Shown here: one piece after another, positions 21,717 to 40,845 of the stretch | Position numbering within the stretch: position 1 is the first letter of the stretch | How the letters are laid out: the number at the start of each line of letters is the position of its first letter | Source of the DNA: Planctomycetota bacterium | GTDB taxonomy: Bacteria > Planctomycetota > UBA1135 > UBA2386 | DNA: 50,928 nucleotides | Direction: 5' to 3' | Assembly: GCA_036160175.1 (NCBI GenBank) | Contig: JAYYEE010000118.1 | Location: forward strand, 1 to 50,928 | Position numbers and translations under genes: made by a program | Notes under the pieces: model-generated | The model's database searches: none | What the model saw: the letters and a program-made list of their open reading frames with translations, nothing else | Told to the model about the DNA's origin: nothing

Positions 21717-24452
21717 GTGTCGTTGTCAACGTCATCCCTGACGCGCGCCCTGACGTGCGCCGTGCTCGCGGCCCTTGCGCTACCAGCGCAGCAGGTGCGC
21801 GTCGCGCCTGGCCTCGGCGTCCTGGCACCAGTTGGCCAAAGCGGCGCCGACGAAGACCCCGGCAAGCCCGTGGAGATGTTCGAGAACTCGAACCTCGACA
21901 ATTACTTGCGTCGCGCGCGCGGGCTGTTGGAGCGCGGCGACTTCACGGGCGCGATCGAGCTCCTCCAGGAAGTCATCGAAGGCAAGACCGTCGAGGTGGT
22001 GGCCATCTCTGCGACGGGTGATCCAGCCCCAGGTGGCGAAGACGCGCCGCGGCCGACGGACGGTTTGGCCGCGTCCACAGGCGGCGCCAGGGAGGACCTC
22101 AGCGCGCGCAATGCGGTCTTCAGCCAAGACGGGCGGCTCTACAGGCCAGTCCGCCGCTTGTGCCACGAGCTGCTCGCGCAAATGCCCGAGGTCGGGATCG
22201 AGCTCTACCGAACGGCCTACGAGTATGCGGCCGAGGAGCTGTTGCAGCGCGCGCTCAAACGCGGCTCAACTGCCGACCTAGAAGGCGTCGCGAACCGCTA
22301 CTTCATCACGTTGCCTGCGGGGCGCGCGATGGTCCTGCTCGCAGATCGCTTGATGCACGCCGGCCGGTATCGCGGCGCAGTCCAGGTGCTCCGAGACCTC
22401 CTCGACACCTACCCCGCCGCCAACCGCGCGCGGCTCGGCATCCGGGCCGTGTGGTGCGAGTTCAAGATCGCGCTGTGCCTGCGGCTCGCGGGCGAGCGGA
22501 ACGAGGCCCGCCGCGCGGTCGAAGACCTCGCGGAAGAGCACGCCGAGGAGTCGCTCCGTATCCTCGGGCAGCTCGAGTCGGTGCGCGACCTCCCAGACAG
22601 CGCGCTGTTCGCGCGAGACACGGTCGTGATCGACGGCGCGGTGGCCGGGGCCGAAGCGTCGTGGCTAGACGATGGTCTGCCGGGCCTGTTGCCGCTGTGG
22701 CAGTATCGCTTCGAAGACCCGCAGCCGTACCGAGATCCCCAGCCCAGCAAGAACAACCGGGGCGGCATCTGGCTGGATAGCGGCGTGCAGACGACCGCGA
22801 TGCCGTTCGCAAAGCGCTATGGTCCAGCAACTTGGGTTGCATTCAGTGAGGATCGCCGCGGCGCCTTCGTCGAGCCGCGCGCGCTGTTCTTGGAGCACTT
22901 CCGCCTGCGGATGACCGACGCGGCGTCGGGGCTTTTGTTGCAGGCGGGCGACGGGGCGAACGCTCCTCCCAAGCCGCGCGAGAACTACCCGCGCGTGCGC
23001 ATCGCGGCGGTCGACCACGCCTTGCTGCGCCCGGTCGAAGACGAGCAGCGTCGCTACGTGGTGTCCGGTTACTCGGGGAACGTGACCAACACGGAGGCGG
23101 CGCTCAAGTCGACCGAGCTGGTCGCCTACGACCGCGAGACCTGGGAGCGCGCGTGGTCTAGCGTCACCTGGCTCGCTGGGGAGGACGGCCTGCGGGACGT
23201 GACCTTCTTGGCCGCGCCGACGGTCTTCGCTGAGCGCTTGCTGCTGCCAGCGCTGCGCGGAGGCTCCTACACCCTTGAGTGCTTGGATCGCCGCACCGGC
23301 GAACCGCTATGGCACGCGCCGCTGCACACGGGCGGCTCACCCTTCTATAAGGCGCCGGGTACGCAGGTCGCCGTGTCTGGCGGGGTCGCCTTCGTCGCGA
23401 CCAACGCAGGCTGCCTCGCGGCGGTGGACGCCTTCTCCGGAGACCTCCGTTGGATCCGACGCTACGAGCGCCTCGATCCGATCCACGGCGCCGGGCGCCG
23501 TAAGGGGAAGTCCAGCAGCGGCAACCGGGGAAACTGGGGCCGGCGACAGCAGTTCACGCAGGAGGCCCTCGGCTCCTTCGAGCCGGCGGACCTCGTGTTA
23601 CACGGCGGCCGCGTCATCCTCGCGCCGTGCGACGGGGACGTGCTGATATCCGTCGACGCGACGACGGGAGAGCCGGTTTGGATGCTCGACGCGGACTCGA
23701 TCCACGCGCCCTACGGGCGGCTCGTGCAGGTCATCGGCGCGGGTGACGGCAAGCTCTTCGTCGCGTCACGATCGCACCTCGTCTGCGTCGAGCTCGCAGG
23801 CGGCTTGGTGAGGTGGATGAAGCAGATACCAACTTGGTTGGGGCCAAAGCACTCGGGGCGCGGCCGAGGCGCGGTCGTTGGGTCGACGGTCATCGTCCCC
23901 AACATGCGCGAGCTGCTGCTGTTTGACGCCAACAACGAGTCGCCGATGCGCCGCCTGCCGCTGCCGTCGTTTGACGAGGGCAGCGAGCCGCTGCAGGGGC
24001 CGTGCAACGTCGTGGTTCGCGGGGCGTGGCTCGCAGCGGGGTTCGCTGGCGGGGTCGAGGTGTTCAGCACCGCGGCTGCGCTCGGCCCGCTCGCGGAGAC
24101 GTCCGAGGACCCGTTGCGTCGCGCCTCCTACCTCGCGACGCTCGGGGACGGTGAGGCCGCTGAAGAGACGCTCGCCAAAGTGATGCAGGGCAGCGAGGAC
24201 CCTGCGGTGCGCGCGCGCGCTGGACGCCGGCTGTTGTCATTGATCCGGGAGAGAGCGTTCAGGGTCGCCTTAGAAGGGGGGCTGCCGGCTGGCCTGGCCG
24301 CGATGGACAAGGTGCGAGAGCTGCTGCCACAGCGGGAGCTGCGCATGCATTGGCACCTCGCGCGGGTCGAGCTGTGTAAGGCGGCGGGGGATCTGCGGGC
24401 GCACGAGGCAGAGCAGCAGCGCCTCTACGATTACATGGAGGGCAGGGGATGA
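21717..24452 (+). CDS. Exported TPR + PQQ-like (BamB-like) beta-propeller repeat protein
   Basis: GTG start. Signal peptide ...LTCAVLAALALPAQQ. N-terminal helical/TPR part, then repeated G(E/D)xxW propeller signatures (GEPLWHAPL, GDLRWIRRY, GEPVWMLD, GGLVRWMKQ). C-terminal helical repeats. 911 aa. Confidence 0.75.
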   Translation: MSLSTSSLTRALTCAVLAALALPAQQVRVAPGLGVLAPVGQSGADEDPGKPVEMFENSNLDNYLRRARGLLERGDFTGAIELLQEVIEGKTVEVVAISATGDPAPGGEDAPRPTDGLAASTGGAREDLSARNAVFSQDGRLYRPVRRLCHELLAQMPEVGIELYRTAYEYAAEELLQRALKRGSTADLEGVANRYFITLPAGRAMVLLADRLMHAGRYRGAVQVLRDLLDTYPAANRARLGIRAVWCEFKIALCLRLAGERNEARRAVEDLAEEHAEESLRILGQLESVRDLPDSALFARDTVVIDGAVAGAEASWLDDGLPGLLPLWQYRFEDPQPYRDPQPSKNNRGGIWLDSGVQTTAMPFAKRYGPATWVAFSEDRRGAFVEPRALFLEHFRLRMTDAASGLLLQAGDGANAPPKPRENYPRVRIAAVDHALLRPVEDEQRRYVVSGYSGNVTNTEAALKSTELVAYDRETWERAWSSVTWLAGEDGLRDVTFLAAPTVFAERLLLPALRGGSYTLECLDRRTGEPLWHAPLHTGGSPFYKAPGTQVAVSGGVAFVATNAGCLAAVDAFSGDLRWIRRYERLDPIHGAGRRKGKSSSGNRGNWGRRQQFTQEALGSFEPADLVLHGGRVILAPCDGDVLISVDATTGEPVWMLDADSIHAPYGRLVQVIGAGDGKLFVASRSHLVCVELAGGLVRWMKQIPTWLGPKHSGRGRGAVVGSTVIVPNMRELLLFDANNESPMRRLPLPSFDEGSEPLQGPCNVVVRGAWLAAGFAGGVEVFSTAAALGPLAETSEDPLRRASYLATLGDGEAAEETLAKVMQGSEDPAVRARAGRRLLSLIRERAFRVALEGGLPAGLAAMDKVRELLPQRELRMHWHLARVELCKAAGDLRAHEAEQQRLYDYMEGRG

Positions 24453-25489
24453 TGATCTGTCGAGGGTGGTTTCGGTGCTCGGTGAGCGCGCTCGCCGCAG
24501 CGGCGCTGGGCGCGCAGCAGCCGAGCTACCCGCCAGGGGTGACCGCGGAGGTGCACGCCGCGATCCAGAGCGGGCTCAAGTGGCTCTCCAAGAACCAGGC
24601 CAAAGATGGCAGCTGGCGCAACTCTGGCGGCTACGGCAGCTACCCAGCCGCGATGACGGGGCTCGCCGGCATGGCGTTCATCGCCAGCGGGTCGACGCCG
24701 ACGCGTGGTCGCTACTGGCGGGAGGTGCGGCAGAGCGCGAGCTTCTTGCTCAAGCACAGCAACCCCGAGAACGGCGTCATCTCCGTGCCCGAAGAGGAAG
24801 GGCGGAGCATGTACGGCCACGGCTTCGCGACGCTCTACCTCGCCAGCGTCTACGGCATGGAAGAGGGCCTGCGCCAGCAGGAGCGGCTCAAGCGCGCGTT
24901 AGACAAAGCGGTGAAGCTGATCGCCTCGGCGCAGTCCACCGCCGGCGGTTGGATCTACACGCCGGACTCGAACAGCGACGAGGGCAGCGTCACGGTCACC
25001 CAGATCCAGGCGCTGCGCGCCTGTCGAATGGCTGGGATCGTCTGCGACAAGAAGGTCATCGACAAGGCCGTCGACTACATCAAGCGCTGCCAGAACGCAG
25101 ACGGGAGCATCCGCTACAGCCTGCGATCCGGCGGCGACGGTCGCCCCGCGATCACGGCGGCCGGGGTCGCGGTGCTTTACAACGCGGGCGTCTATGACGA
25201 TCAGCCGTTCGTGACGAAGGCGGTCGACTACTGCAAGAAGCAGATCAAGGTCACCGTCAACAGCACGGGGCACCACTACTATGCGCACCTCTACTGGTCG
25301 CAGGCGCTCTACCAGCGCGGCGGCGACGACTGGGACGAGTACTACCAGCAGGCGTGCCAATACTTGCTCCGTCAGCAGCGCAAGGACGGCAGCTGGCAAG
25401 GCGACGGGGTCGGCACGGTCTACGGCACCGCGATCGCGTTGACTATCCTCCAGCTGCCGTACGCGTACGCGCCGATCTACCAGCGCTGA
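24449..25489 (+). CDS. Exported prenyltransferase/squalene-oxidase-repeat (alpha/alpha toroid) protein
   Basis: ATGA overlap with the upstream stop. Signal peptide, then recurring QxxDGSW/GGW repeat motifs (QAKDGSWRN, QSTAGGWIY, QNADGSIRY, QRKDGSWQG) typical of the terpenoid-cyclase/prenyltransferase toroid. I saw no DxDD motif. Confidence 0.75.
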   Translation: MMICRGWFRCSVSALAAAALGAQQPSYPPGVTAEVHAAIQSGLKWLSKNQAKDGSWRNSGGYGSYPAAMTGLAGMAFIASGSTPTRGRYWREVRQSASFLLKHSNPENGVISVPEEEGRSMYGHGFATLYLASVYGMEEGLRQQERLKRALDKAVKLIASAQSTAGGWIYTPDSNSDEGSVTVTQIQALRACRMAGIVCDKKVIDKAVDYIKRCQNADGSIRYSLRSGGDGRPAITAAGVAVLYNAGVYDDQPFVTKAVDYCKKQIKVTVNSTGHHYYAHLYWSQALYQRGGDDWDEYYQQACQYLLRQQRKDGSWQGDGVGTVYGTAIALTILQLPYAYAPIYQR

Positions 25490-25525: not shown

Positions 25526-27778
25526 ATGAGCGGGTTGGCCTTCTTCAATCCGCTGCTGCTGTGGGCGCTGCCGCTAGCGGCAGTTCCGATCATCATCCAC
25601 ATCCTGAACCGCCGACGGTTCCAGAAGGTCCCTTGGGCGGCGATGGAGTTCCTGCTTCGCGCGATGAAGCGCAACCGCAAGCGCCTGCGGATGGAGCAGT
25701 GGCTCGTGCTGTTGCTGCGCGTGTTGGCGGTCCTGCTCCTCGTGTTCTTGGTGAGCCGCCCGCAGCTCGGCAGCGGCGGGTTGCTGGGCGGGCGGACGCA
25801 CCACGTGGTGATCCTCGACGACAGCCCGTCGATGACGCAGCGAAGCGGCAGCACGGACCTGTTCGAGAAGGCGCAGGACAAAGCGCGACAGCTGGCCGAC
25901 GACCTCGCGCAGCGCCGCGCCGGTGACCTCTTTTCGATCGCTAGGACCAGCGCGCCGATGGAGTGGGCGATGGCGCCGCAGCGGGTCAGCGGCAGCTTCG
26001 GTCGCGTCGCAGGCGCCACGCTCAAGGAGATGCAGGTCAGCGACCTGCCGTCGGATCTCGGCAAGGCGTTGCAGATGGCTGTGACCCGCAGCGGCAAGGT
26101 CGAGGACGCCGCACGGACGGAGTACTACTTGATCGGCGATCGCCGCGCGTGGGACTGGGCGACCGAGGACGAGAAGCCGCGAGCAGATTTGGCGAAGAGC
26201 CTCGCTGGCCTCGACAAGGAGCGCGAGCACGTGACGGTGCTCAGCGTCGGGGGCCAGCACGACAACCTCGCCGTGGTCGACGTCAAGCTGCAGGATCGGC
26301 TCGCGATCGCGTCGGTGCCGGTCACGCTCGGCGTCGACGTGAAGAACTTCGGCCTCGACCCCGCGCCGCCTACGACCGTCGCCATCGAGGTCGACGGCCA
26401 GACCAGCATCAACCAGGACGTGCCGCAGCTAGCCCCAGGGGAGCGCGTCACGTTGCCGTTTGACTACACCTTCCACAGCGGGGGCTCGCACCGTGTCCGG
26501 GCGATGCTCGAGCCCGGGGGCACCCACGCCTTCGATGATCGCCGCACGCTCGCGTTGCGGGTGCGCGACAAGAGCCGCGTGTTGTTGATCGACGGGGACC
26601 CGGACAGCGGGCAGGGGGAGACGTTCTTTCTACAGGCGACGCTCGATGTCCCCGAGTCGGGCATCGAGGCGCAGGTCGTCACCGAGTCTGGCTTTGACGA
26701 GGTCAACCTCGGCGCGTTCGACATGGTGTGGCTCTGCAACGTGCAGGCGCCGACGCAGCAGGCCTCGGCGCGGCTTGAGGCGGTCGTTCTGTCTGGCGGC
26801 GGCCTCGCGGTGACCCTCGGCCCGCTGGTAGACGCGGCACGCTACAACGAGCTGCTCTGGCGCGGCGGCGACGGCCCGCTGCCGCTGCCGATCGGCGAGA
26901 TCGACGGAGACCCCGACCGGCCTGAGCCAGCGTTCCTCGCGTCCATCGACCATCCGATGTGCGAGGGCGTCGCCGAGCTGTTCCAGCTCGTCCTAGGCAA
27001 CTGGGTTCAGGTGAAGCGGTGGCTGACCCTCGAGGAGCCCGAAGGGCGCGAGGCCGCCGTGGTCGCGCGGATCCGGGACGCCGACGGACCGCCGATGATC
27101 GCGACGCGGACGTTCGGCGGCAAAGGCGGAGAGGTGGCGCTCTTCGCGATCACAGCGGATCGTTTCTGGAGCAACTTGCCCAGCACAGACCTGTTCCTCG
27201 TCGTCACGCACCAGCTGCATCACTTCGCGGCGCGACGCGATGACCCGCGCCGGCAGAACCTCGGCACGGACGGGGTCTGGCGCCAACAGCTCGACCCTGG
27301 GGTGTATCGCCCCGACGTTACGCTGCGCGCGACCGAGGGCGATGACGAGCGCACCTACACGGCCGCGGCGCCGGCGAGCGAGAGCGCGCCCGCGCAGGGC
27401 GACGCGAGGCCCGGCGTCGACGCCGCGGAAGGCGCGCCGCAGGGCGAGGAGCTCGCCCTCGAGGTCGTCGCCGACCTGCGCGAGCTGTCGGCCCGCGGCG
27501 CCTATGAGGTCGAGCTGCGTCGGCACGACGGCGTGCCCGCGACGCGCATGATCGCGCGGAACGGGCCGGTCGAAGAGGGGCGGCTGGTCGGTTTCGACGA
27601 AGCGGCCTTCAAGAAGCTCTACCCGGCCTCGTCGCACGACGTGGTGACCTTCGTCCGTGACGAGGGCAGCGTGGGCAGCGCGGCGATGGAAGGCGAGGCG
27701 TGGCCCCTGCTCGCGTCGCTGTTGCTCGCGGGTCTCCTGCTCGAATCCCTGCTCGCGTGGAGGTTCGGTCGCCGCTGA
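25526..27778 (+). CDS. BatA-type N-terminal double-transmembrane protein (large periplasmic region, C-terminal TM)
   Basis: The N-terminus FFNPLLLWALPLAAVPIIIHILNRRRFQKVPWAAMEFL is the aerotolerance-regulator (BatA) double-TM signature. It ends with the TM helix WPLLASLLLAGLLLESLLAWRFGRR. 750 aa. Confidence 0.8.
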   Translation: MSGLAFFNPLLLWALPLAAVPIIIHILNRRRFQKVPWAAMEFLLRAMKRNRKRLRMEQWLVLLLRVLAVLLLVFLVSRPQLGSGGLLGGRTHHVVILDDSPSMTQRSGSTDLFEKAQDKARQLADDLAQRRAGDLFSIARTSAPMEWAMAPQRVSGSFGRVAGATLKEMQVSDLPSDLGKALQMAVTRSGKVEDAARTEYYLIGDRRAWDWATEDEKPRADLAKSLAGLDKEREHVTVLSVGGQHDNLAVVDVKLQDRLAIASVPVTLGVDVKNFGLDPAPPTTVAIEVDGQTSINQDVPQLAPGERVTLPFDYTFHSGGSHRVRAMLEPGGTHAFDDRRTLALRVRDKSRVLLIDGDPDSGQGETFFLQATLDVPESGIEAQVVTESGFDEVNLGAFDMVWLCNVQAPTQQASARLEAVVLSGGGLAVTLGPLVDAARYNELLWRGGDGPLPLPIGEIDGDPDRPEPAFLASIDHPMCEGVAELFQLVLGNWVQVKRWLTLEEPEGREAAVVARIRDADGPPMIATRTFGGKGGEVALFAITADRFWSNLPSTDLFLVVTHQLHHFAARRDDPRRQNLGTDGVWRQQLDPGVYRPDVTLRATEGDDERTYTAAAPASESAPAQGDARPGVDAAEGAPQGEELALEVVADLRELSARGAYEVELRRHDGVPATRMIARNGPVEEGRLVGFDEAAFKKLYPASSHDVVTFVRDEGSVGSAAMEGEAWPLLASLLLAGLLLESLLAWRFGRR

Positions 27779-27791: not shown

Positions 27792-30287
27792 ATGGAAGAC
27801 ATCTTGCGATGGTTGGCAGTGTGGCGCGGCGTCGAGGTCGAGCCCGGCGCCGAGCTGCAGTTTGAGTTCGCCAGCTTCCCGGCAGGCGGCCTCGGCTTGC
27901 TCGTGCTGCTCGGTATGGCGACAGCCATCGTCGCCATTGGCTTCCTCTATCGTCGTGACGGCAAGCAGCTCAAGGCGTGGCAGCGCCTCGTGCTCGGGAC
28001 GCTGCGCGCGCTCGCCGTGCTCGCGGTCATGCTGCTGCTGCTCGAGCCCAACATCGTGTCGGTCGAGCGCGACGTCCGCGAAGGCCACACCATCCTGCTG
28101 GTAGACACGTCGCAGTCGATGACGCACGTCGACGCTTGGCGGCGCGACGAGGTCCAGCCTGCGAAGGCGGCTTGGGGCGAGGTCGGCGTCGACGACCCTG
28201 CAGCGGGGTCTCGCTTGGACCTCGTCAAGGCGCTGCTGGCCCACGCGGACCAAGCGTTGGTGCGGAAGCTCGCCGCCAAGAACCAGGTCAAGCTCTATCG
28301 CTTCGCCGGCTCGATCTCGGACCTCCCGATCGTGCCGTCGGCGCCGGCAGTAGAGCCGGACGGCGAGCCGCTGCCCGCTGGGCCAGATCCGGACGCGCCG
28401 CCGCCCGAGCTGGACCTCGACAAGCTCATCGCCGACGGCCGCTCGAGCGATCTTGGGGGCTCGCTGCACACAGCGCTGGACCGCAGCCGGCCGGCCGAGA
28501 TCGCCGCGGTCGTGCTCGTGACCGACGGACGCCGCACCGCCGGGCCTCAGGGCGCCGAGGTCGCGCGCTTGCTTGAGCAGCGCAAGGTCCCCCACACGTT
28601 CGTGCTCGGCGTCGGCGACCCCTCGGAGACGCAGACGATCACGCTGACGCGCATGGAGGCGCCCTCGAAGGTCTTCCAACGCGACCCCTACGAGCTGAAG
28701 GCCACGGTGTCTTCGCAAGGCTATGACGGCGTCGCCGTGACCGCGCGCCTCGTGCGCGTCGACGAGCAGGGAGCCGAGACGGTGGTCGCGACGCAGCAGG
28801 TGCAGATCGGTGAGAGCCAACAGGCGCCGATCTTCTGGAAGGACCTGACCAGCGACGCGCCGGGCCGCTTCATCTATCGCACTGAGATCCTGCCGCCCGA
28901 CGGCGAGCCGATGATCGCCGAGCGACACACCAAGACGGCGGCGGTCGAGGTCCTCGGGGAGCGCCTCCGCATGCTGCTGCTCGCGGGCGGCTCAAGCCAC
29001 GAGTTCCAGATCCTGCGCAACCTGTTGATCCGCGACAAGACCATCGACGTCACCTGCTGGCTGCAGAGCGCGGACGAGAACTTCCCCCAAGAAGGCAACG
29101 AGGACGTCCGGATCACGCGCCTCCCCGAAGGTCGCGCTGAGCTGGAGCCGTACGACGTCGTGGTCTTGATCGACCCGGACCCGCGCAAGCTGACGACCCG
29201 CTTCTGCCAGGGGCTCAGCGAGCACATCGTCGAAGGCGGCTGCGGCATGTGGTGGGTCGCGGGTGAGCAACACACGCTCGACGCGCTCCGACCCAACGCC
29301 AGCACGCAGCCAATCGCCGACCTGCTCCCGATTCAGCCAGACGTCGAGTTCGCGGAGCGCAAGATGCTCGGGCTCGGCAAGGCGTTCCCGCGCCCGTGGC
29401 GCTACCGGCTGACATCAGACGCCGTCGACGGGATCGGGGCGAAGCTGATGCGCTTGGACGACGACAAGGACACCAGCAACCTGCTCTGGGAGCGGATCCC
29501 CGGGTTCCACTTCTGGTTCCCCGTCGCCGGACTCAAGCCCATCGCGACGGCGCTGGCGGGGCACCCGAGCCCTGAGTTCCGCGTCGCGGGCGAGGATATG
29601 CCCATCATCGCCGTGCAGAAGCTGGGTGCTGGGCGTGTGTTGTTCCTCGGGACCGACGAGACCTACCGCTGGCGGTCTCTCTATGAGGACGCCTACAACC
29701 GCTTTTGGATCAACGGCGTCCGCTACCTCTTCGAGGGCCGCCTGCAAGCGGGCAACAGCCGGCTGCGCCTGCTCAGCAGCGACGACAAGATCGACCTCGG
29801 CGACGCCGTCGAGCTCGTCGCCGAGGTCAAGGACGCCTCGCTGCAGCCGCTGATCGCGGCGGCGTTCCCCGTCGCGGTCGAGCGCGAGGGAGAGGTCGTA
29901 GAGACGGTAGACCTCGCGCCGGTCGAAGCGTTGCCCGGCAGCTACTCGCTGCGTTACCGCCCGACCCAGCTCGGCACCTACCGGGTGCGACCCGTCGAGA
30001 AGAGCGGCAAGGCCGTCGAGCTCTCGTTCCAGGTCGTGCCCGCCCAGGTCGAGTCCCAAGGGCCGATGGAGCGAAGCAACCTCGCGGCCATCGCGGGCGC
30101 GGACGGTGCGCAGCTGTTCGACGACCCGGCTGCGCTGCTGCGCGCGCTCGACGACGTGCCGTCGCGCTCCGCGACCGACACGTTCCGCACCCCACACGCC
30201 CTCTGGGACGGCTGGCCTACGATCACGCTGGTGCTCGTGTTGCTGTCGATCGAGTGGATCCTCCGCAAGCGCTTCAACCTGCTATGA
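27792..30287 (+). CDS. Membrane-anchored von Willebrand factor A domain protein
   Basis: ATG 27792 (the 27657 start overlaps the upstream gene). Two N-terminal TM helices. The MIDAS motif is HTILLVDTSQSM with AAVVLVTDGRRT. A later block LRMLLLAGGSSHEF...YDVVVLIDPDP is GATase1-like by eye. C-terminal TM helix WPTITLVLVLLSIEWIL. Confidence 0.8.
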   Translation: MEDILRWLAVWRGVEVEPGAELQFEFASFPAGGLGLLVLLGMATAIVAIGFLYRRDGKQLKAWQRLVLGTLRALAVLAVMLLLLEPNIVSVERDVREGHTILLVDTSQSMTHVDAWRRDEVQPAKAAWGEVGVDDPAAGSRLDLVKALLAHADQALVRKLAAKNQVKLYRFAGSISDLPIVPSAPAVEPDGEPLPAGPDPDAPPPELDLDKLIADGRSSDLGGSLHTALDRSRPAEIAAVVLVTDGRRTAGPQGAEVARLLEQRKVPHTFVLGVGDPSETQTITLTRMEAPSKVFQRDPYELKATVSSQGYDGVAVTARLVRVDEQGAETVVATQQVQIGESQQAPIFWKDLTSDAPGRFIYRTEILPPDGEPMIAERHTKTAAVEVLGERLRMLLLAGGSSHEFQILRNLLIRDKTIDVTCWLQSADENFPQEGNEDVRITRLPEGRAELEPYDVVVLIDPDPRKLTTRFCQGLSEHIVEGGCGMWWVAGEQHTLDALRPNASTQPIADLLPIQPDVEFAERKMLGLGKAFPRPWRYRLTSDAVDGIGAKLMRLDDDKDTSNLLWERIPGFHFWFPVAGLKPIATALAGHPSPEFRVAGEDMPIIAVQKLGAGRVLFLGTDETYRWRSLYEDAYNRFWINGVRYLFEGRLQAGNSRLRLLSSDDKIDLGDAVELVAEVKDASLQPLIAAAFPVAVEREGEVVETVDLAPVEALPGSYSLRYRPTQLGTYRVRPVEKSGKAVELSFQVVPAQVESQGPMERSNLAAIAGADGAQLFDDPAALLRALDDVPSRSATDTFRTPHALWDGWPTITLVLVLLSIEWILRKRFNLL

Positions 30288-34231: not shown

Positions 34232-34264
34232 ACGGGTACTTGAGGCGGGAAGAACCCGCCGCTC

Positions 34265-34474
34265 GTGCCCGTGTCGGCAGAGCTCAAGATGTTGAAGTTC
34301 CTCCAAGAGCGCGTGAACAAGAAGACCAAGCAGGTCGAGGCGCTGGGCGCTGACGACGGCGCGAAGCAGGCAGACTACGACCAGGTGTCCAAGAAGCAGG
34401 ATCGGGTCAAAGAGCTGATGCGCCGCCTCGCCGAGAAGCTCGGCAAGGAAGACGAGGGCGAGGGGGACACCTGA
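34265..34474 (+). CDS. Small charged protein, or detached C-terminal module of the preceding coiled-coil gene (same frame)
   Basis: GTG 34265 opens a 69-aa ORF (PVSAELKMLKFLQERVNKKTKQVE...). It is in the same reading frame as 32585-34231 and separated from it only by TGA-ACG-GGT-ACT-TGA plus 7 sense codons. Its stop overlaps the next ATG (TGATG). Confidence 0.5.
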   Translation: MPVSAELKMLKFLQERVNKKTKQVEALGADDGAKQADYDQVSKKQDRVKELMRRLAEKLGKEDEGEGDT

Positions 34475-35526
34475 TGCGTCCACAACGCGTCATCGCGCTC
34501 TTCGTCGCGGTCGGGCTCGTCGCTGGGGCTCGCGCCCAAGTGCAGCTGCCAGGAGAAGGCGTGCTGCCTGAGGCGCACATGCCCAAGGTCACGCCCGTCC
34601 AGGTGCAGAACCCGTTCAAGCCGTTCGACCAAGCCAAGTACGAGGCGGCTGTGCGCGCGCTAGGTGGCACGCGGCTGCAGCTCAAGACCTTCGCCGAGGA
34701 GGTCGAAGAGCTCGGCGCCGCGCGCGCCGGCGACGACCTGCTGCGCAAGGTCTCTCCGGCGTTTGGCGAGGCGGTGTTGGCGGCCGAGGACGGCGACCCA
34801 AAGGCCGCGCTGATGCTCACCAAGGTGCTGGTCGACGCCGAGTCGCCCGTGCTCCAAGCGCACGCTCGCTACCACCTCGCGCGCTTCTTCCTCGACAGCG
34901 ACGACCCTGAGCGCGCGATCGAGGTGCTCAACGAGTATCTGTCGCGCAACGTCAACGTGTCCCCGCTCGACGGCGAGGTGGCCTACTTCTACGCCCAGTC
35001 GTTGGCGGAGGTGCCGATGCTGGACGCCGCGATCCCGCGGTTCCGCGCGTTCCTCGCGTGGTTCCCCGGGGCGAGCGAGCGGCTTCGTTCCGCCGCGCAC
35101 CAGCGCGTGCTGGAGCTCGAGCGTCAGCGCGAGAGCCGGCTGCACATGCTCGCGGACGGCATGAAGAAGACGACGCGGGACCTGCGAAAGAAGAAGACCG
35201 ACAAGCCCGTCCAGCTCGACCAGGAGACCTACATCGAAGAGCTCGACCAGCTGATCGAGATGTTCGAGGAGATGGAGAACCAGTCGTCAGGCCCGCCGTC
35301 CGGCAACGGCCCCTCGAGCAACCCTGCGGCGAACAGCGCCTTGCCCGAAGGCGAGGGCAGCGTCGGCGAGCTCAAGAACCGCCCGTCGCTCGCGGACCGC
35401 TGGGGTGACATGCGTGACAGCGAGCGCAAGAAGATCATGGCGGACGTGCAGAACACCATGCCCCCGCAGTATCGGAAGATGCTCGAGGAGTACTACAAGA
35501 AGCTCGGCAAGGCCGACCGCAAGTGA
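34474..35526 (+). CDS. Exported helical (TPR-like) protein with conserved basic/aromatic C-terminus
   Basis: Signal peptide MRPQRVIALFVAVGLVAGARAQ. Helical-repeat middle, low-complexity linker, and C-terminus MPPQYRKMLEEYYKKLGK. 350 aa. Confidence 0.7.
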   Translation: MRPQRVIALFVAVGLVAGARAQVQLPGEGVLPEAHMPKVTPVQVQNPFKPFDQAKYEAAVRALGGTRLQLKTFAEEVEELGAARAGDDLLRKVSPAFGEAVLAAEDGDPKAALMLTKVLVDAESPVLQAHARYHLARFFLDSDDPERAIEVLNEYLSRNVNVSPLDGEVAYFYAQSLAEVPMLDAAIPRFRAFLAWFPGASERLRSAAHQRVLELERQRESRLHMLADGMKKTTRDLRKKKTDKPVQLDQETYIEELDQLIEMFEEMENQSSGPPSGNGPSSNPAANSALPEGEGSVGELKNRPSLADRWGDMRDSERKKIMADVQNTMPPQYRKMLEEYYKKLGKADRK

Positions 35527-36740
35527 GCGCATCCCCGACCACGCGCGCGCTGATCGGCTGCGTACTGGTGTGCGCGACGTTGAGCGGCCAGGCGAGGGGC
35601 GTCGTGCGCACGATCGACGGCCGCGCGCTGACCGGCGCATTGACCGTGTCCGATGGCGGTCGCGCGGAGGTGATGACCGAGGGTGGCAAGGTCGAGGTCG
35701 GGGTCGCGGACCTCGTCGCGTTCGAGCCTGAGGGTCAGGCAGCTCGGACCGTGCGCACAGAGCACCAGGTCTGGCTTCGTTCTGGCGCGGTCCTGCCGGC
35801 GAAGAAGATCTCTGGCCGCGCCAGCGCGGACTCCAAGCCATCGGTGCTGCTTGTCACGCTGCCTTGCGGCGAGGTCTTGGAGCTGCCGATCGGTACGCTG
35901 CGCGCGATTCGTCATGGCGGGCTGATGCGCCCGAAGCCAGCGCTCTTCGACCAAGACCTCGCAGCGCCCCCGGCCAACGAAGACGTCATCTACGTCGTCG
36001 GCGATGGCAAAGCGCAGCGTTCTATGGTGACGCTCACAGCGGTCCGCGCGGACGCGGTCGACTTCTTGCTACGTGGCGAAGAATATGAGTTCGGCCTCGA
36101 GGGGTTCGCCGGCGTCGTCTTCGGGCAGAACACGGGCTTCGCCCCCGATCGCCAGGGGCGTCCACGCACGGTGGTCACGTTGACGACGGGCGAACGCATT
36201 GAAGGTCGGCTCTTGAGCCTCGAAGCCCGGCTGCGCTGCCGGCTTGACGAGGGATGCGTCCTCGACGTCCCCGTCAGCCGCCTGCATAAGCTGGAGGTCT
36301 CGAGCGACAAGCTCGTCTGGCTCACAGACTTGACCCCAGCGGTCGAGCAGACCCCCGCGTTCGATCGAACGTGGCCATGGCACAACAACCGCTCGGCGGC
36401 CGGCCCTGGTTTTGTGTTGGCGGGGCGGCGCTATGACCGCGGCGTTGGCCTCGTGCCGCGCACGCGGCTCACCTACACGCTGGACGGCCGCTTCGACGTC
36501 TTCGAGGCGGCCATCGGCATCGACGACCGGGGCGGCCCGGCGGCCCACGCGGTCTTTCGGGTCTACGTCGACGGCGTGAAGACGTTCGAGTCTGAGCCGA
36601 TGAGGCTCGAGCAGCCGCCGCAGGAGCTGCGCGTCGCGCTGAACAAGGCAAAGACGCTGACCATCGAGGTCGACTTCGGAAAGAACTACGACCTCGGCGA
36701 CTTCTGCGCGTTCGCCGATGCGCGTGTCGTGCAGCGGTAG
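35523..36740 (+). CDS. Exported protein with C-terminal NPCBM-like (carbohydrate-binding-module-like) domain
   Basis: GTGA overlap with the upstream stop. Signal peptide. The C-terminal GPGFVLAGRRYDRGVGLVPRTRLTYTLDGRFDVFEAAIGIDDRGG...VFRVYVDGVKTFES...LTIEVDFGKNYDLGDFCAFADARV has the NPCBM/NEW2 pattern (G..Y..GlG.h..s...y.l.g.f..F....GiDd). Confidence 0.7.
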   Translation: MSASPTTRALIGCVLVCATLSGQARGVVRTIDGRALTGALTVSDGGRAEVMTEGGKVEVGVADLVAFEPEGQAARTVRTEHQVWLRSGAVLPAKKISGRASADSKPSVLLVTLPCGEVLELPIGTLRAIRHGGLMRPKPALFDQDLAAPPANEDVIYVVGDGKAQRSMVTLTAVRADAVDFLLRGEEYEFGLEGFAGVVFGQNTGFAPDRQGRPRTVVTLTTGERIEGRLLSLEARLRCRLDEGCVLDVPVSRLHKLEVSSDKLVWLTDLTPAVEQTPAFDRTWPWHNNRSAAGPGFVLAGRRYDRGVGLVPRTRLTYTLDGRFDVFEAAIGIDDRGGPAAHAVFRVYVDGVKTFESEPMRLEQPPQELRVALNKAKTLTIEVDFGKNYDLGDFCAFADARVVQR

Positions 36741-36770: not shown

Positions 36771-38594
36771 ATGACCTTGCTCGCTGCGATGATCTGCTGC
36801 TCGATGCAGGACCCTGCCGCGGCGGTCGCCGCTGCGGAGGCGCGCCGCGTCGCGGTGATCGAGCGTTGCTCGCGGGCCGTGTGCTCCGTGATGTCGATGG
36901 ACGCGCCCGGCGGCGGCAGCGGCGTCATCTTCGACCCAGCTGGCTTGGTGCTGACGAACTATCACGTCGTCGGGGAGCCGGACAAGGACTACCGACCGCC
37001 CGAGCCGCCGGAGCCGCCCGCGTCGGTGCTCGCCGACTTGCGCGCCGGCTACGACCCCGAGACCGCGGACGCCGGCAAGCAGTGGAACGAGGCGGTCGCG
37101 ATCCAGCAGTGGCAGGAGCGCTGGCGCCGCGAGCACCTGCCTGCGGGCAAGGCGCACTACAAGAACAAGAAGATCGGGCTCCCGGACGGAAGGCTCTACG
37201 AGGGCGTCGTGCTCGGGATCGACCCCGGTAGTGACCTCGCCGTGATCCGCATGCTCCCCAAGGAGAGCGGCCAGACGTGGCCCTACTGCGACCTCGGGGA
37301 CAGCGACGAAGTGTTGGTCGGCGAGACGGTGTTCGCGATGGGCAACCCGTTCCTGCTCGCGACGGACTTCAAGCCGACCGTGACGTTCGGCATCGTCTCG
37401 GGCACCCACCGATACCAGGAGGGCCAAGGCGGCCGCATGCTCGTCTACCCGGACTGCATCCAGGTGGACGCGCCCGTGAACCCGGGCAACTCCGGCGGCC
37501 CGCTGTTCAACGAGCGCGGCGAGGTCATCGGCATCAACGGCCGCATCTCGATCGGCGACCGCGGCCGCGTCAACGTCGGCGTCGGCTTCGCGATCGCGTC
37601 GAACCAGATCCGCAACTTCCTCGGTGAGCTAGTCGCGGGTCGCCACGCAGAGCACGGCACGCTCGACATGAGCGCGTGGTTCATGACCTCGCGTGAGGGC
37701 AAGGAGAAGCGCCGCGGCGTCTTCGTCCAGCAGATGTTTCAGGACTCGGTGACCGCCGCCGCCGGCGTCGGGCTCGGGGACGAGATCACCCGCTTCAACG
37801 GCGTCGACGTGCGCTCAGCCAACCAGCTCGCGACGATGGTCGGCGTCCTGCCTGCAGGGACCTGGGTGACGCTGCGACACCGCCCGCTGCTCGAGGACGG
37901 CGGGTTCGGCGACGAGCGGGAGGTCACGGTCCAGTTGGCCACGCTCGACACCGGCTCCAGCCGCGACGGCACGGGCGACGACGCGCGGCTGGGCAGCCGC
38001 GTCGACCGGCGGATCGTCACCGATCAGCTGGTCGACGCCTGGGCGGCGCAGCCTGCAGCGGCCGAAGAAGGGCCGGTGGTCAAGTGGTCGCGGCGCGGCC
38101 CGACCGGCGACACGTTCGGGCTCATGGCCTTCGGCGACCGCGTGGTCCTTGACGTCGCCGGCGTGTCCTACGCGCGCCTTGGAGACGGCGCCGCCCTCGT
38201 CTTCGTCCCCGGCGAAGACGCCAGCGGCGGCGTCGTCGAGATGACCGTCGACGAGCGCGAAGGCATGCGCCGCGAGCTCGCCGCCAACCCGATGCTCTGG
38301 CGCCGCAGCGAGCTGCGCGAGCGGCTGAAGGGCGCGTTGCTGATCGGCGGCGTGCACGTGCTCGGCCGGCCTGGCTACCGCTTCGCGATCCCTGGCGCGG
38401 GCGACTGCGAGGCGTGGTTCCTGCTCGACGGCACCCCGGCGGGCTACGCCTACCGAGACCCGATGCGTAAGGCGCACGTCGCCTACCACGTGCGCGGCGA
38501 GCAGCTGCGGGTCGTCGTGGACGGTGCGCTCGAGCCCGGCTGGACGGCCGGCGCGCGGGAGTTCGGTGAGTTCGATCAGCAGGGAGGAAAGTGA
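36771..38594 (+). CDS. S1C (HtrA/DegP-like) serine protease with PDZ domain and about 200-aa C-terminal extension; catalytic triad intact
   Basis: His context GLVLTNYHVV, Asp context SDLAVIRM, Ser context PVNPGNSGGPLFNERGEVIGING. PDZ-like GVFVQQMFQDSVTAAAGVGLGDEITRFNG. An insertion of about 60 aa lies between His and Asp. Confidence 0.85.
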   Translation: MTLLAAMICCSMQDPAAAVAAAEARRVAVIERCSRAVCSVMSMDAPGGGSGVIFDPAGLVLTNYHVVGEPDKDYRPPEPPEPPASVLADLRAGYDPETADAGKQWNEAVAIQQWQERWRREHLPAGKAHYKNKKIGLPDGRLYEGVVLGIDPGSDLAVIRMLPKESGQTWPYCDLGDSDEVLVGETVFAMGNPFLLATDFKPTVTFGIVSGTHRYQEGQGGRMLVYPDCIQVDAPVNPGNSGGPLFNERGEVIGINGRISIGDRGRVNVGVGFAIASNQIRNFLGELVAGRHAEHGTLDMSAWFMTSREGKEKRRGVFVQQMFQDSVTAAAGVGLGDEITRFNGVDVRSANQLATMVGVLPAGTWVTLRHRPLLEDGGFGDEREVTVQLATLDTGSSRDGTGDDARLGSRVDRRIVTDQLVDAWAAQPAAAEEGPVVKWSRRGPTGDTFGLMAFGDRVVLDVAGVSYARLGDGAALVFVPGEDASGGVVEMTVDEREGMRRELAANPMLWRRSELRERLKGALLIGGVHVLGRPGYRFAIPGAGDCEAWFLLDGTPAGYAYRDPMRKAHVAYHVRGEQLRVVVDGALEPGWTAGAREFGEFDQQGGK

Positions 38595-39658
38595 TGCGCG
38601 CGTTGCTGTTCGCGCTCTCGCTGGCGCTCGCGCTGCCCTCGCAGGGCGAAGCCGCGCCGCGCGCGATCGACTATGGCGAAGCGTACTCGTTCGACGAGCG
38701 CGCGCCCAAGACGCGAGTCGAGCAGACCATCGACAAGCTGCTCCCCAGCGTGGTCAAGGTCTTCGGCGCGTCGGGCCTCGCGACGATCAAGCCCTACGCT
38801 ACCGGCGTGATCGTGAGTGATCGCGGCCACATCCTGACGCTGGACCAAGTCCTGCTGCAGAAGGGCCGCACGCGCGTCGTGCTCTACGACGGCTCGGTGC
38901 ATCCAGCGACCCTCTACGCCGCCGACGAGAAGCTCGGCGTGCGCATCCTCAAGATCAGCGCAGAGGACGTCGACGGCCCGCTCCAGCCGCTGTGGCCCCC
39001 GAGCGCGGAGACCGCTCGGCGCCGCAACGGCCAGTTCGTCGTCAGCTTGGGCAACTGCTTCCGGCTCGCAGAGTTCTCTGAGAAGGTCAGCGCGACCTTC
39101 GGCGTCGTCGTCGGGACGGCGAACACGGCGCTGCGCTACCGGATGGCCGACGTGAAGTACGACGGCGACATCATCCTGACCGACGCGTGCAACAACCCGG
39201 GCCACTACGGCGGCGGACTGTTCACGCTCGACGGCCGCTGGATCGGGCTCAACATGCGCCTGCTCGACAGCAAGGAGACCAACACGATGCTGTCGGCGGC
39301 GATCCCGTCGCGCGACCTGCTGCCCTACCTTGAGGAGATGGTGCTCGGCAAGGCGCGCGTCGAGGTCGAGGTCGCCAACGTCCCGGTCTGGACCGGGGTC
39401 AAGCTGTTCGAGTCCGCGGGCCGCAAGTCCCCGCCGGCGTACGTCGAGCGCGTCAAGCGAGGATCGCCTGCGCGCGCGCTCGGCTTGCGCATCGACGACC
39501 TCATCGTGCGCATCGACGACTTCTCGGTCCGCAGCTGCACGGAGTTTCGGCGCGTGCTCGAGAAGTACAAGCCGGGCGACACGGTCAAGGTCATGTGGAA
39601 GCGCGGCGCCCGCGTGATGACGGGCGAGATGACCCTCGCAGAGGAGCCGAAGAAGTGA
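38591..39658 (+). CDS. S1C-like/PDZ protein with all three catalytic positions substituted (pseudoprotease)
   Basis: GTGA overlap. Signal peptide MMRALLFALSLALALPSQG. Fold-defining blocks are kept, but the His site reads HILTLDQVLL (Gln), the Asp site EKLGVRILKI, and the Ser site CNNPGHYGGGLFTLDGRWIGLN (Tyr). C-terminal PDZ-like RGSPARALGLRIDDLIVRIDD. Confidence 0.75.
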   Translation: MMRALLFALSLALALPSQGEAAPRAIDYGEAYSFDERAPKTRVEQTIDKLLPSVVKVFGASGLATIKPYATGVIVSDRGHILTLDQVLLQKGRTRVVLYDGSVHPATLYAADEKLGVRILKISAEDVDGPLQPLWPPSAETARRRNGQFVVSLGNCFRLAEFSEKVSATFGVVVGTANTALRYRMADVKYDGDIILTDACNNPGHYGGGLFTLDGRWIGLNMRLLDSKETNTMLSAAIPSRDLLPYLEEMVLGKARVEVEVANVPVWTGVKLFESAGRKSPPAYVERVKRGSPARALGLRIDDLIVRIDDFSVRSCTEFRRVLEKYKPGDTVKVMWKRGARVMTGEMTLAEEPKK

Positions 39659-40845
39659 GGGTCGTCGCGCTGATCGTAGCGAGCGCGTTGTCGCTGCCGC
39701 TCTGCGCCCAGCGCGACGACGAGTTCGTCCAGTTGGAGCCGGTGCTGCAGGCCGCGCTGAAGAAGGCTGGCCCGTTCGTGGTCACCGTCGAGACCTTCGG
39801 CGGGACGCGGCGCCTGATGGGCAAAGAAGGACCGATGGATGGCCCGGCGCCGCCGCGGCCGCGGCCGAAGCCCAAACCGAAGAAGAAGGACCCCGACGAC
39901 GAAGACGGCGAGCGCAAGAAGCCCAAGCTCCCGCTGGTCGCCGGCGGGTTCCAGCAGGCGCAGGGTAAGACGTCGGGCGTCGTCCTGACGTCGGACGGGT
40001 GGATCCTGATCTCGCGGTTCGCGCTCAACCTCGACCCGACGACGGTCCTGGTCACGGTGCCGGGCAAGGGCACGTTCACCGCGCAGCGCGCCGGCGAGGA
40101 CACGAGCCGCGGCGTCGCGCTGGTCAAGATCGACGCTGAGGGGCTGACGGTGCCGACCTTCGTGCCGCCACGAGACGTGCGGGTGGGCCAGTGGGCGTTC
40201 GCGCTCGGCCGGACGTTCGCGCAGGAGGAGCCGACCGTGCACCTGGGCATCGTCAGCGCCAAGGACCGGATCTACGGTCGCGCGCTGCAGGTCGACGCCT
40301 ACACGTCGCCCGCGAACTACGGCGGCGCGGTCGTCGACATCTACGGCCGCGTGCTCGGCGTCGCGGTGCCGCTCTCGCCTTCAGGTCGGAACGCGGGCGT
40401 CGAGTGGTACGACTCGGGGATCGGCTTCGCCACCACGATCGCGGACATCGCGCCGCTGCTCGAGCGCATGAAGGCCGGCCAAATCCTGCAGCGGGCGTGG
40501 CTCGGCGTGCAGCTGTCTTCCAAGCACCTCGGTCCGGGCGCGAAGGTCACGGGTACGCCCAAGGACGGCGCCGCCGCCAAGGCCGGCGTGCGCAAGGGCG
40601 ACGTCATCATGAAGGTCGACGGCGTCGACGTGCTCAACGGCCCCCACTTCCAGATGCTGGTCAGCTCGCGCCTCGGCGGCGACACCTGCACGTTGCTGGT
40701 GAAGCACCGCCGGACCGACGAGCTGCGCGAGGTCGGGCCCGTCACGCTGAAGAACGCGCCCTGGTCCGAGCAGACCAAGGGCGAAGAGTCGCTGCCGGCT
40801 TCGTTCTCGTTGCCTGAAGCCGAAGGCGGCGGCGACAAGCGCTGA
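39655..40845 (+). CDS. S1C-like/PDZ protein with substituted catalytic positions and Pro/Lys-rich insert (pseudoprotease)
   Basis: GTGA overlap. Signal VRVVALIVASALSLPLCAQ. The His site reads GWILISRFAL (Phe), the Asp site SRGVALVKID, and the Ser site YTSPANYGGAVVDIYGRVLGVAV (Tyr). Insert PAPPRPRPKPKPKKKDPDDEDGERKKPK. PDZ-like GAAAKAGVRKGDVIMKVDG. Confidence 0.75.
   Translation: MRVVALIVASALSLPLCAQRDDEFVQLEPVLQAALKKAGPFVVTVETFGGTRRLMGKEGPMDGPAPPRPRPKPKPKKKDPDDEDGERKKPKLPLVAGGFQQAQGKTSGVVLTSDGWILISRFALNLDPTTVLVTVPGKGTFTAQRAGEDTSRGVALVKIDAEGLTVPTFVPPRDVRVGQWAFALGRTFAQEEPTVHLGIVSAKDRIYGRALQVDAYTSPANYGGAVVDIYGRVLGVAVPLSPSGRNAGVEWYDSGIGFATTIADIAPLLERMKAGQILQRAWLGVQLSSKHLGPGAKVTGTPKDGAAAKAGVRKGDVIMKVDGVDVLNGPHFQMLVSSRLGGDTCTLLVKHRRTDELREVGPVTLKNAPWSEQTKGEESLPASFSLPEAEGGGDKR

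Follow-up and report, generated by a model that had tools for sequence, protein, structure and literature searches.

The stretch of DNA considered here, hereafter the window, comprises 50,928 nucleotides (51 kb; G+C about 68%) of contig JAYYEE010000118.1 from a Planctomycetota bacterium (GTDB lineage UBA1135; UBA2386), and between positions 21717 and 40845 of its forward strand it carries a compact cluster of genes for exported and membrane proteins, which includes a predicted selenoprotein and resembles the Bat (Bacteroides aerotolerance) modules of other bacteria. Twelve forward-strand open reading frames (ORFs), starting at 21717, 24449, 25526, 27792, 30284, 32585, 34265, 34474, 35523, 36771, 38591 and 39655, have been confirmed in this interval, as listed in a first-pass annotation made from the sequence alone, and so have six start/stop overlaps (ATGA at 24449 and 30284, TGATG at 34472-34474, and GTGA at 35523, 38591 and 39655). 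These overlaps measure 4 nt at 24449, 30284, 35523, 38591 and 39655 and 1 nt at 34474, and the remaining gaps between ORFs range from 13 to 69 nt, the latter being the largest, again as had been noted. For ORF4 and ORF5, the shorter starts agree with the lengths of the orthologs. Since ORF6 and ORF7 are read here as one gene, the cluster would count 11 genes instead of 12, and the evidence tips slightly towards one conserved operon of these 11 genes. The signal peptide or transmembrane (TM) helix formerly attributed to every product is lacking in ORF7 taken alone, a discrepancy that is resolved once ORF7 is merged with ORF6. A scan for σ70 promoter consensus sequences and terminators was uninformative (0 promoters; 11 terminator-like sites versus 7.2 expected). 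For comparison, a scan limited to a single genome for each GTDB species gave 58 related loci, and the 13 proteins of the window were used as tblastn queries against such loci.

ORF6 (32585-34231) and ORF7 (34265-34474) lie in one frame, in-frame TGA codons being their only separation. Automatic gene callers split them in two, and they had been annotated as separate genes at first; the shared frame, together with the alignment of TGA with cysteine (Cys) codons in orthologs, argues instead for a single gene of 629 codons (32585-34474, forward strand). Its product would have a signal peptide, a long coiled coil, a GGG-U-TGT-U-GG motif and a conserved C-terminal helix. The two in-frame UGA codons (34229-34231 and 34241-34243, forward strand), predicted to specify selenocysteine (Sec), have been read directly in the sequence; in 15-17 orthologs the gene is a single continuous ORF with Cys codons at the TGA-aligned positions. 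Among 57 sequences the interrupting codon is always TGA, never TAA or TAG, and the TGA form occurs in about 40 loci. Variants of the motif among orthologs include QCNC, CNGQC, U-TS-C, C-U, CGH-U and U-TGT-U. Moreover, the peptide encoded between the "stop" and the supposed start of ORF7 (GGxxPPLVPVSAELK...) has been preserved while its codons changed synonymously, and which start codon comes next after the TGA varies among species, with 6-19 codons intervening. A local, site-specific recoding would be at work rather than a variant genetic code, because TGA is the ordinary stop of six other genes in the cluster. Taken together, these features indicate that ORF6/7 encodes a predicted coiled-coil selenoprotein with a Sec/Cys redox motif, a protein for which neither Pfam nor NCBIfam holds a family. 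The redox motif had been overlooked in the first-pass annotation. Decoding of Sec has been documented in some other Planctomycetes (PMC4807772).

The RNA that follows the first UGA is consistent with this prediction. A structure resembling a selenocysteine insertion sequence (SECIS) spans 34229-34283 on the forward strand, with a lower stem that starts from the first UGA, an upper hairpin at 34244-34260 and a second hairpin at 34261-34283. Downstream of the first UGA, the RNA folds into a two-helix hairpin (minimum free energy -28.8 kcal/mol, z = -4.1, none of 200 shuffled sequences being as stable) whose upper stem begins 12 nt past that codon. In the consensus of 31 distinct sequences both helices are kept, with compensatory changes such as U-A in 19 sequences versus C-G in 9; paired cells amount to 91.7%, versus 35-60% with slid partners, and the observed score was reached by none of 500 shuffles. 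The mean fold energy is -22.7 kcal/mol for the TGA form versus -18.7 kcal/mol for the Cys form. In many relatives the apical loop reads GGUCA, a loop similar to the GGUC loop of E. coli fdhF; in the first hairpin of the window it reads AAGAA. The second hairpin (GCUCGUGCC-CGUGUC-GGCAGAGC) stands directly after the first in all two-UGA genes; it is present in L005, L006, L008-L013, L015, L028 and L057 as well, where the UGA codons are 9-12 nt apart. At its gathering thresholds Rfam reported no RNA family in the window, SECIS models included, and ARAGORN found no tRNA gene there.

The three genes that precede ORF6/7 encode the membrane proteins that link the cluster to the Bat modules. ORF3 (25526-27778, forward strand; 750 aa) combines a BatA_N double-TM segment, a VWA-like domain with a DDSPS metal-ion-dependent adhesion site (MIDAS), CARDB/Ig and GATase1-like domains and, at the C-terminus, a TM helix. 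It matches PF07584 with 68.4 bits (cut-off 25.9), TIGR02226 with 74.7 bits (cut-off 23.05) and CARDB. Across its orthologs D98 and S102 of the MIDAS are invariant and S100 is conserved in at least 90%; in its BatA_N domain the motif of the cytoplasmic loop is fully conserved (HxLNRRRF, with W37 among the further invariant positions). A look-up of the exact ORF3 sequence found nothing. In ORF4 (27792-30287, forward strand; 831 aa), two N-terminal TM helices are followed by a predicted VWA domain and by Ig-like and GATase1-like domains, and a further TM helix is C-terminal; the MIDAS D105-S107-S109 and, at 244-246, a TDG motif are among its invariant residues. According to hhalign, the two proteins are paralogs (probability 96.9%, E 1.3e-10 over 380 columns), and in both the alpha/beta domain combines DxSxS with a TDG/GD motif. 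On the Pfam VWA model ORF4 scores 14.7 bits, below the cut-off of 23.8, and profile matches to VWA structures in the PDB have E values of 0.1-0.8; PDB sequence searches with ORF4, as a single sequence and as a profile, and with the ORF3 profile returned nothing significant. The assignment of ORF4 as a VWA protein is favoured because of its invariant DxSxS and TDG motifs, its paralogy to ORF3 and the names that PGAP gives to its orthologs ("VWA domain-containing"). Its AlphaFold2 (AF2) model has a mean confidence score (pLDDT) of 83 and displays alternating alpha/beta structure.

ORF5 (30284-32515, forward strand; 743 aa) has an N-terminal TM helical hairpin, Ig/MG-like beta-sandwiches at about residues 208-543 and a C-terminal bundle of long helices, and is DUF4175-like. 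Its AF2 model (pLDDT 83) matches only tandem Ig/MG folds in Foldseek; searches with the full-length models of ORF4 and ORF5 gave generic multidomain matches (Ig/MG, GH2/GH3) with TM-scores of about 0.1-0.2, which were not used for function. ORF5 itself has no direct match to the Pfam family DUF4175. Nevertheless its profile detects P0389 (E 4e-66), a relative that does match PF13779 (DUF4175; 38.8 bits vs a cut-off of 27.3), and finds 8260 representative relatives at E <= 1e-3 among 1.84 billion cluster representatives. The domain calls of the first-pass annotation were upheld by Pfam and NCBIfam for ORF1, ORF2, ORF3, ORF9 and ORF10-12; in Pfam, families above threshold are absent for ORF4, ORF5, ORF6, ORF7 and the N-terminal part of ORF9. 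The profile matches placed no member of the cluster in an unrelated, already characterised pathway, a placement that would have spoken against the first-pass reading.

Two contigs with canonical modules reveal the likely ancestry of these genes. L064 has the order MoxR fragment, DUF58, BatA/VWA, 807-aa protein and 744-aa protein, and is colinear with ORF3-4-5 in full-length alignments (tblastn E 8e-57 for ORF3, 9e-100 for ORF4 and 3e-62 for ORF5). In L063 the order is MoxR fragment, DUF58, BatA/VWA, DUF4175 and VWA/GATase1_like; ORF3 matches its BatA/VWA gene (E 5e-36), ORF4 is homologous to its VWA/GATase1_like gene, and ORF5 matches its DUF4175 gene (E 6e-17) and is likewise homologous to the ORF5-like gene of L064. 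A third and distant cluster, L065, continues the series beyond ORF5, as it encodes, in the order of the window cluster, an ORF4-like protein, an ORF5-like protein, a 471-aa coiled coil, a 93-aa protein and an 83-aa protein. The secreted 471-aa coiled coil is a Cys form (...GGCKGC...LVSELSVVRMLE) with a CxxC motif, and the ORF6/7 profile aligns with its N-terminal domain (92%, E 6e-7). The 83-aa protein (6312-6563 of L065) ends in a tail, FPPGYEKLLEEFYLRL, which matches that of ORF8 (hhalign 90.8%, E 1.2e-6). ORF8 (34474-35526, forward strand; 350 aa) consists of a signal peptide, a TPR-like region (sub-threshold), a disordered linker and the C-terminal tail MPPQYRKMLEEYYKKLGK. This tail is also C-terminal in the long DUF4175-type protein P0394 (1134 aa; a weak match) and in the related P0395 (1141 aa), and the motif PP(Q/E/G)Y..(L/M)(L/V)EE(Y/F)Y..L is shared by ORF8 (window 35420-35523), P0394/P0395 and the 83-aa protein of L065. 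These relationships suggest that ORF5, the coiled coil and the tail are the units of DUF4175-type proteins, in which they occur fused or split, and ORF5, ORF6/7 and ORF8 appear, to judge from weak matches, to be a DUF4175-type protein made as three polypeptides. The idea rests on the ORF5 matches, the tail matches and L065, not on the matches between the coiled coil and P0394 (BLASTP and hhalign), which are weak and possibly caused by composition. The backbone formed by ORF3, ORF4, ORF5, ORF6/7 and the ORF8 tail is homologous to the membrane part of a module that, in both other contigs examined, comes after MoxR and DUF58. The "Bat-like pair" first proposed was correct in pointing to a Bat-like core, as the colinearity of ORF3/4/5 with the L064 module demonstrates, and too narrow in its extent, since the core now takes in ORF3, ORF4, ORF5, ORF6/7 and the ORF8 tail.

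The leading genes of the canonical module are missing from the locus. Pfam found MoxR (AAA_3) and DUF58 (PF01882) in no plausible gene of the 51-kb window; when the window and about 60 related loci were searched by tblastn, the MoxR fragment produced nothing better than E 0.36 and the full DUF58 protein a best E of 0.47; and the 10 kb on either side of ORF5 contained neither gene in about 58 relatives. The absence reported at first for the window is therefore borne out and extends to the flanks of the relatives. The position that MoxR and DUF58 would occupy upstream of the BatA gene is taken here by a TPR/PQQ propeller protein (ORF1) and an alpha/alpha toroid (ORF2). Judged at the locus, the membrane module is stably uncoupled from linked MoxR and DUF58 genes across more than 50 species.

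Conservation of the arrangement is extensive. By tblastn, the full gene set is present with order and strand unchanged in 29 loci; most of the others, which include about 27 truncated loci with a partial set, end at contig edges. For ORF5, identity across the syntenic loci falls as low as 38%. The arrangement is far beyond chance, because order and strand recur in the 29 complete loci and partly in the roughly 27 truncated ones down to this level of identity. Loss of synteny in relatives had been named as an observation that would speak against a cluster; what was found is the recurrence of the 12-gene order in 29 loci, with junction spacing and overlaps conserved. For example, the ORF4/5 start/stop overlap is kept in 46 of 51 loci, that between ORF10 and ORF11 in 39 of 40, and the ATGA overlap of ORF1 and ORF2 in 31 of 39. 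The best-conserved members are the toroid ORF2 (61-92% identity) and the pseudoprotease ORF11 (53-82%). Homologs of ORF5, with 52-91% identity, come only from metagenome-assembled genomes (MAGs) of uncultured Planctomycetota of marine, freshwater and other origin, one record carrying the label CL500-15. The gene tables of two relatives list an identical gene order, the divergent HEAT/propeller gene upstream included. In L039 a 3.5-kb insertion separates ORF8 from ORF9.

The distal part of the cluster adds a carbohydrate-binding-type protein and three HtrA-like proteins. ORF9 (35523-36740, forward strand; 405 aa) has a signal peptide, an N-terminal region of 266 aa for which Pfam gave no match, and a C-terminal NPCBM domain (PF08305, 89.8 bits vs a cut-off of 23.9, residues 265-402); it is syntenic in relatives. 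ORF10 (36771-38594, forward strand; 607 aa) is an HtrA/DegP-type serine protease with a short lipoprotein-like leader, a weak PDZ match and a C-terminal extension of about 230 aa; it scores 108 bits on Trypsin_2 and 207 bits on TIGR02037, below the 416-bit subfamily cut-off, and its triad H65, D155, S241 is intact in 40 of 40 orthologs. In the orthologs (window 36771-36900) the very short leader ends in L-A-S-C or similar, so that a lipoprotein signal is possible, and a conserved RC-x4-C-SVM Cys pair lies just ahead of the protease domain. ORF11 (38591-39658, forward strand; 355 aa; Trypsin_2 67 bits, PDZ_2 43 bits) has Q/G/Y at the triad positions, Gln being found in 38 of 39 sequences and His, Asp or Ser in none of the 39. 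ORF12 (39655-40845, forward strand; 396 aa; Trypsin_2 61 bits), which also has a PDZ domain and carries a Pro/Lys-rich insert near the N-terminus, has F/G/Y in all of 39 orthologs. Neither is less conserved than ORF10, and ORF11 is more conserved than this active paralog. ORF10 is accordingly the predicted active protease of the set, and ORF11 and ORF12 are predicted pseudoproteases, because the fold and the PDZ domain are kept while all three triad residues are replaced; the earlier description of three HtrA-like paralogs, protease and pseudoprotease, thus agrees with the triad analysis. HtrA proteases are trimers, and with three co-translated paralogs this suggests a mixed HtrA trimer of ORF10-12, at 1:1:1. 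In addition, a JGI 3300072015 contig with P0307 carries a distant DUF4175-like gene followed directly by two HtrA-like (Trypsin_2+PDZ) genes, so that the link between DUF4175 and HtrA appears to recur outside this lineage. In L001 a Peripla_BP_2/FecCD/ABC transporter lies directly downstream of the ORF9 equivalent; in other relatives such genes follow ORF12.

At the other end of the cluster, ORF1 (21717-24452, forward strand; 911 aa) encodes a signal peptide, a TPR region and a PQQ_2/BamB-like beta-propeller (Pfam PQQ_2, 54 bits, and TPR_6), with 34-69% identity in syntenic relatives. ORF2 (24449-25489, forward strand; 346 aa) is a secreted alpha/alpha toroid similar to prenyltransferases and squalene-hopene cyclases, which matches SQHop_cyclase_C, SQHop_cyclase_N and Prenyltrans in Pfam and, in PDB sequence searches, only repeats of squalene-hopene cyclase. 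In L015 a tandem duplicate of ORF2 (4028-5068) yields two secreted 346-aa paralogs. An extra stretch of about 1.1 kb between ORF2 and ORF3 is found in L012, L013, L028, L032, L036, L037, L040 and L057 as well, and these eight loci, with their L015-like spacing, probably carry the toroid duplication too. The idea that the extra 1.1 kb of the nine loci holds the missing MoxR was rejected, the segment being a second toroid gene in L015. Similarly, a protease trap of the alpha-2-macroglobulin type, considered in view of the MG-like domains of ORF5 and a weak TED match in ORF2, was rejected, as the TED match amounts to 22 bits over 27 residues; a reading of the ORF2 sequence disclosed no thioester motif of the CGEQ type.

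Divergently from ORF1, and outside the interval delimited by the first-pass annotation, lies a gene here called U (19191-21473, reverse strand; 760 aa), which encodes a signal peptide, HEAT repeats and, at the C-terminal end, a beta-propeller similar to arylsulfotransferases (Pfam). It has the same divergent position in 26 related loci, with 42-72% identity (31% in L058); it is probably the twelfth member of the cluster and may be an additional member of the system. Alignment and motif scans of 27 intergenic regions between U and ORF1 uncovered a conserved leader block (21587-21634, forward strand) of the form GGAAT..N..CTCGCCGTC..N..(C/T)(G/T)TAGA(G/T)TC, or in longer form GGAAT...CTCGCCGTC...CGTAGA(T/G)TC...TGATCCCTC. 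Its CTCGC.GT core is present in 15 loci and the window, 111-161 nt ahead of the ORF1 start where matched, and the GTAGAT/GTAGAG part is present in most other loci. The block may be a promoter or leader element, of the extracytoplasmic function (ECF) type or other, common to the lineage, and is reminiscent of GGAAT-N16-CGTC promoters of the ECF type. Further upstream (window 13524-19197) there are genes for a Peptidase_MA_2/DUF1570 protein, a diaminopimelate (DAP) epimerase, LemA, an unassigned 353-aa ORF and an M48 peptidase, LemA beside the M48 peptidase being another small envelope-associated pair. On the downstream side, window 42182-49475 holds a polysaccharide-synthesis island, with genes for an amine-oxidase-like flavoprotein, two GT2 glycosyltransferases, a Wzx-type flippase and a GT87-like protein; in relatives this island shows no synteny with the cluster.

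With a small balance in its favour, the products are proposed to form an inner-membrane-anchored, periplasm-facing complex derived from a Bat-type module with lineage-specific additions. By analogy with the Borrelia protein BB0173, the VWA domains would face the periplasm; the products would assemble into a periplasmic scaffold anchored in the inner membrane, where the MIDAS sites could hold protein or glycan ligands. The Sec/Cys pair (UxxxU in the window) would serve as a redox-reactive switch or cross-link, and within the mixed HtrA trimer the dead subunits would regulate or target the single active one. The combined outcome might be a redox-responsive quality control or processing of envelope components, a function that we put forward tentatively and hold to be clearly less likely than not. 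A more specific version is improbable as it stands: the cluster would be an ATPase-independent descendant of the Bat/MoxR modules and a periplasmic redox-gated proteolytic machine, whose secreted coiled-coil selenoprotein (UxxxU/CxxU) would sense or relay oxidation and so control a 1:1:1 HtrA heterotrimer, one subunit active and two dead, docked on a VWA/MIDAS membrane scaffold; if true, the Sec/Cys motif would be a first mechanistic handle on the link of Bat-type modules to oxygen tolerance. Several observations weigh against the proposal. The VWA assignment of ORF4 and the DUF4175 assignment of ORF5 miss curated thresholds when tested directly; three species (L001/L002, L007 and L008) keep ORF1-9 without the protease trio at the locus, so that the trio is not obligatory in cis; and no outer-membrane beta-barrel or lipid-anchor component was identified among the products. 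Of the multi-protein, envelope-spanning assembly first suggested, the conserved operon is thus retained, whereas its spanning of the envelope stays conjectural; the physical association of the products is an inference from the operon, and the functional step is an analogy with canonical Bat/MoxR modules. As for the selenoprotein, one SECIS could hardly serve two Sec codons 9 nt apart, and the first-hairpin loop of the two-UGA genes lacks the G/U typical of characterised bacterial SECIS elements.

The last of these points also favours the reading of ORF6 and ORF7 as two separate genes, in which TGA would end ORF6 and re-initiation would yield a peptide of 60-70 aa without selenocysteine, as the gene callers propose. 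This reading is nonetheless very improbable, given that the two ORFs are always in one frame with TGA as the intervening stop, that TGA is aligned with Cys in at least 15 continuous-ORF orthologs, that synonymous changes in the 6-19 codons past the "stop" have left the encoded peptide conserved, that the "start" differs between species, and that structured RNA with covariation follows the TGA. A substantial chance, if somewhat under even, is given to a MoxR-dependent Bat-type system of the ordinary kind, with its ATPase and DUF58 genes relocated in the genome, an explanation that concerns gene location and not mechanism and is compatible with most of the favoured reading. The fully conserved cytoplasmic loop of BatA_N in ORF3 is the only cytoplasm-facing part within reach of a cytoplasmic ATPase, in L063 and L064, the two canonical contigs examined, the homologous genes come immediately after MoxR and DUF58, and the relatives were inspected only over ±10 kb around ORF5, so that both genes could be elsewhere. 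However, none of the inspected flanks of more than 50 species-level genomes carries MoxR or DUF58, two different secreted proteins stably fill the position upstream of the BatA gene, and stable uncoupling would be unusual for obligate partners.

Two further explanations deal with the function of the whole. The NPCBM domain of ORF9 (90 bits), the weak match of ORF2 to the pectate lyase model TIGR02474 (E 3e-4), the Foldseek matches of the ORF4 model to multidomain glycoside hydrolases at low TM-score and the polysaccharide-synthesis genes downstream in the window would fit a glycan-handling or surface-adhesion apparatus, in which NPCBM, toroid (as a pectate-lyase/terpenoid-cyclase-like fold), propellers and Ig/GATase1-like domains bind or process polysaccharide, either captured or of the cell wall, and the VWA proteins are adhesins. 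This is unlikely, as no member has a catalytic glycoside-hydrolase or lyase family above threshold, the TM-scores of about 0.12 fit shared beta-sandwich/Rossmann pieces only, and the downstream glycosyltransferase genes are not syntenic, FecCD/ABC genes taking their place in relatives. Slightly less probable still is an operon of convenience, that is, the co-transcription of a Bat-like module, a redox protein and HtrA housekeeping proteases that do not form one machine. The lack of proteases at the locus in three species with ORF1-9, the variable copy number of the toroid gene and the tolerance of a 3.5-kb ORF8/ORF9 insertion in L039 speak for it; the persistence of order, strand and overlaps to 38% identity in 29 loci speaks against it, as does the linkage of a DUF4175-like gene to HtrA-like genes in an unrelated contig, and the two pseudoproteases, for which a role as housekeeping enzymes is out of the question, nevertheless belong to the best-conserved members.

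The complex proposed here bears on a widespread class of proteins, since Bat/MoxR-associated VWA modules have more than 8000 representative relatives for the ORF5 type alone. In several bacteria, modules of the Bat/MoxR type have been associated with tolerance of oxygen and of stress. The present variant shows that the membrane module can be long conserved without a linked ATPase, and ties it to an HtrA protease accompanied by a conserved pair of pseudoproteases; the Cys/Sec redox pair in a core subunit, which is CxxC in the distant cluster L065, offers a concrete chemical hypothesis. Moreover, the predicted selenoprotein family, hitherto unannotated and divided into two genes by gene callers, is relevant to the annotation of marine and freshwater Planctomycetota MAGs.

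The comparison with known systems places the cluster closest to two of them. Like the Bat operon, the Borrelia genes BB0170-BB0176 and the Leptospira batABD genes, it encodes a BatA_N double-TM segment, a C-terminal TM helix and, between them, a putative VWA domain with a MIDAS; as in the Bat operon, one operon encodes paralogous membrane proteins of this kind next to each other, together with TPR proteins. The BatA- and VWFA-containing protein BB0173 is an inner-membrane protein whose VWFA domain has been located in the periplasm by topology mapping (PMC5700661), and the function of the Bat proteins is described as unresolved (PMC3557215). The differences are several: BatA and BatB measure about 330 aa, whereas ORF3 and ORF4 reach 750-830 aa with added Ig and GATase1-like domains; the Bat operon has an adjacent MoxR AAA+ ATPase and DUF58 protein, both of which the window cluster lacks; and no BatD or SH3 (BatE-type) match was found, the Pfam scans of the twelve products having returned only the families given above for each ORF. 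The propeller, the toroid, the selenoprotein coiled coil, the NPCBM protein and the HtrA trio are not known to have a Bat counterpart. The second system is the MoxR-DUF58-BatA_N/VWA-VWA/GATase1_like-DUF4175 module of L063 and L064, whose three membrane proteins are homologous to ORF3-5 (in the same order in L064) and whose DUF4175 C-terminus weakly matches the tail of ORF8; relative to this module, the window cluster has a DUF4175-type protein apparently split in three, one part being a predicted Sec protein, and five or six added lineage-specific genes. The HtrA trio resembles MamE and MamO of magnetotactic bacteria, in which an active HtrA protease stands beside conserved triad-less paralogs. 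The NCBIfam matches to MamE/MamO are weak (105 and 31 bits vs an equivalog cut-off of 800), and here a magnetosome context is absent, a search for a magnetochrome domain gave nothing and two pseudoproteases accompany each active enzyme; the logic of a pseudoprotease that controls its active partner is plausibly the same. As in bacterial selenoproteins of the CxxU and UxxC types, UGA and Cys interchange in ORF6/7, a second Cys or Sec is adjacent and a hairpin follows directly 3'; in contrast to thioredoxin-fold and related selenoproteins, it is a coiled coil with a signal peptide, often with two UGA codons 9-12 nt apart. Literature searches on Bat/MoxR/DUF58 and on DUF4175 yielded no description of the extended cluster, whose composition had been regarded from the start as not belonging to a described system. 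It is best filed as a probable descendant of the Bat/MoxR-associated VWA membrane module, and not as a Bat operon by the measure of its ATPase, DUF58 and BatD-type partners; what is new is the uncoupling from MoxR/DUF58, the apparently split DUF4175-type protein with its predicted Sec/Cys motif, the propeller, toroid and NPCBM additions and the HtrA set of one active protease with two pseudoproteases.

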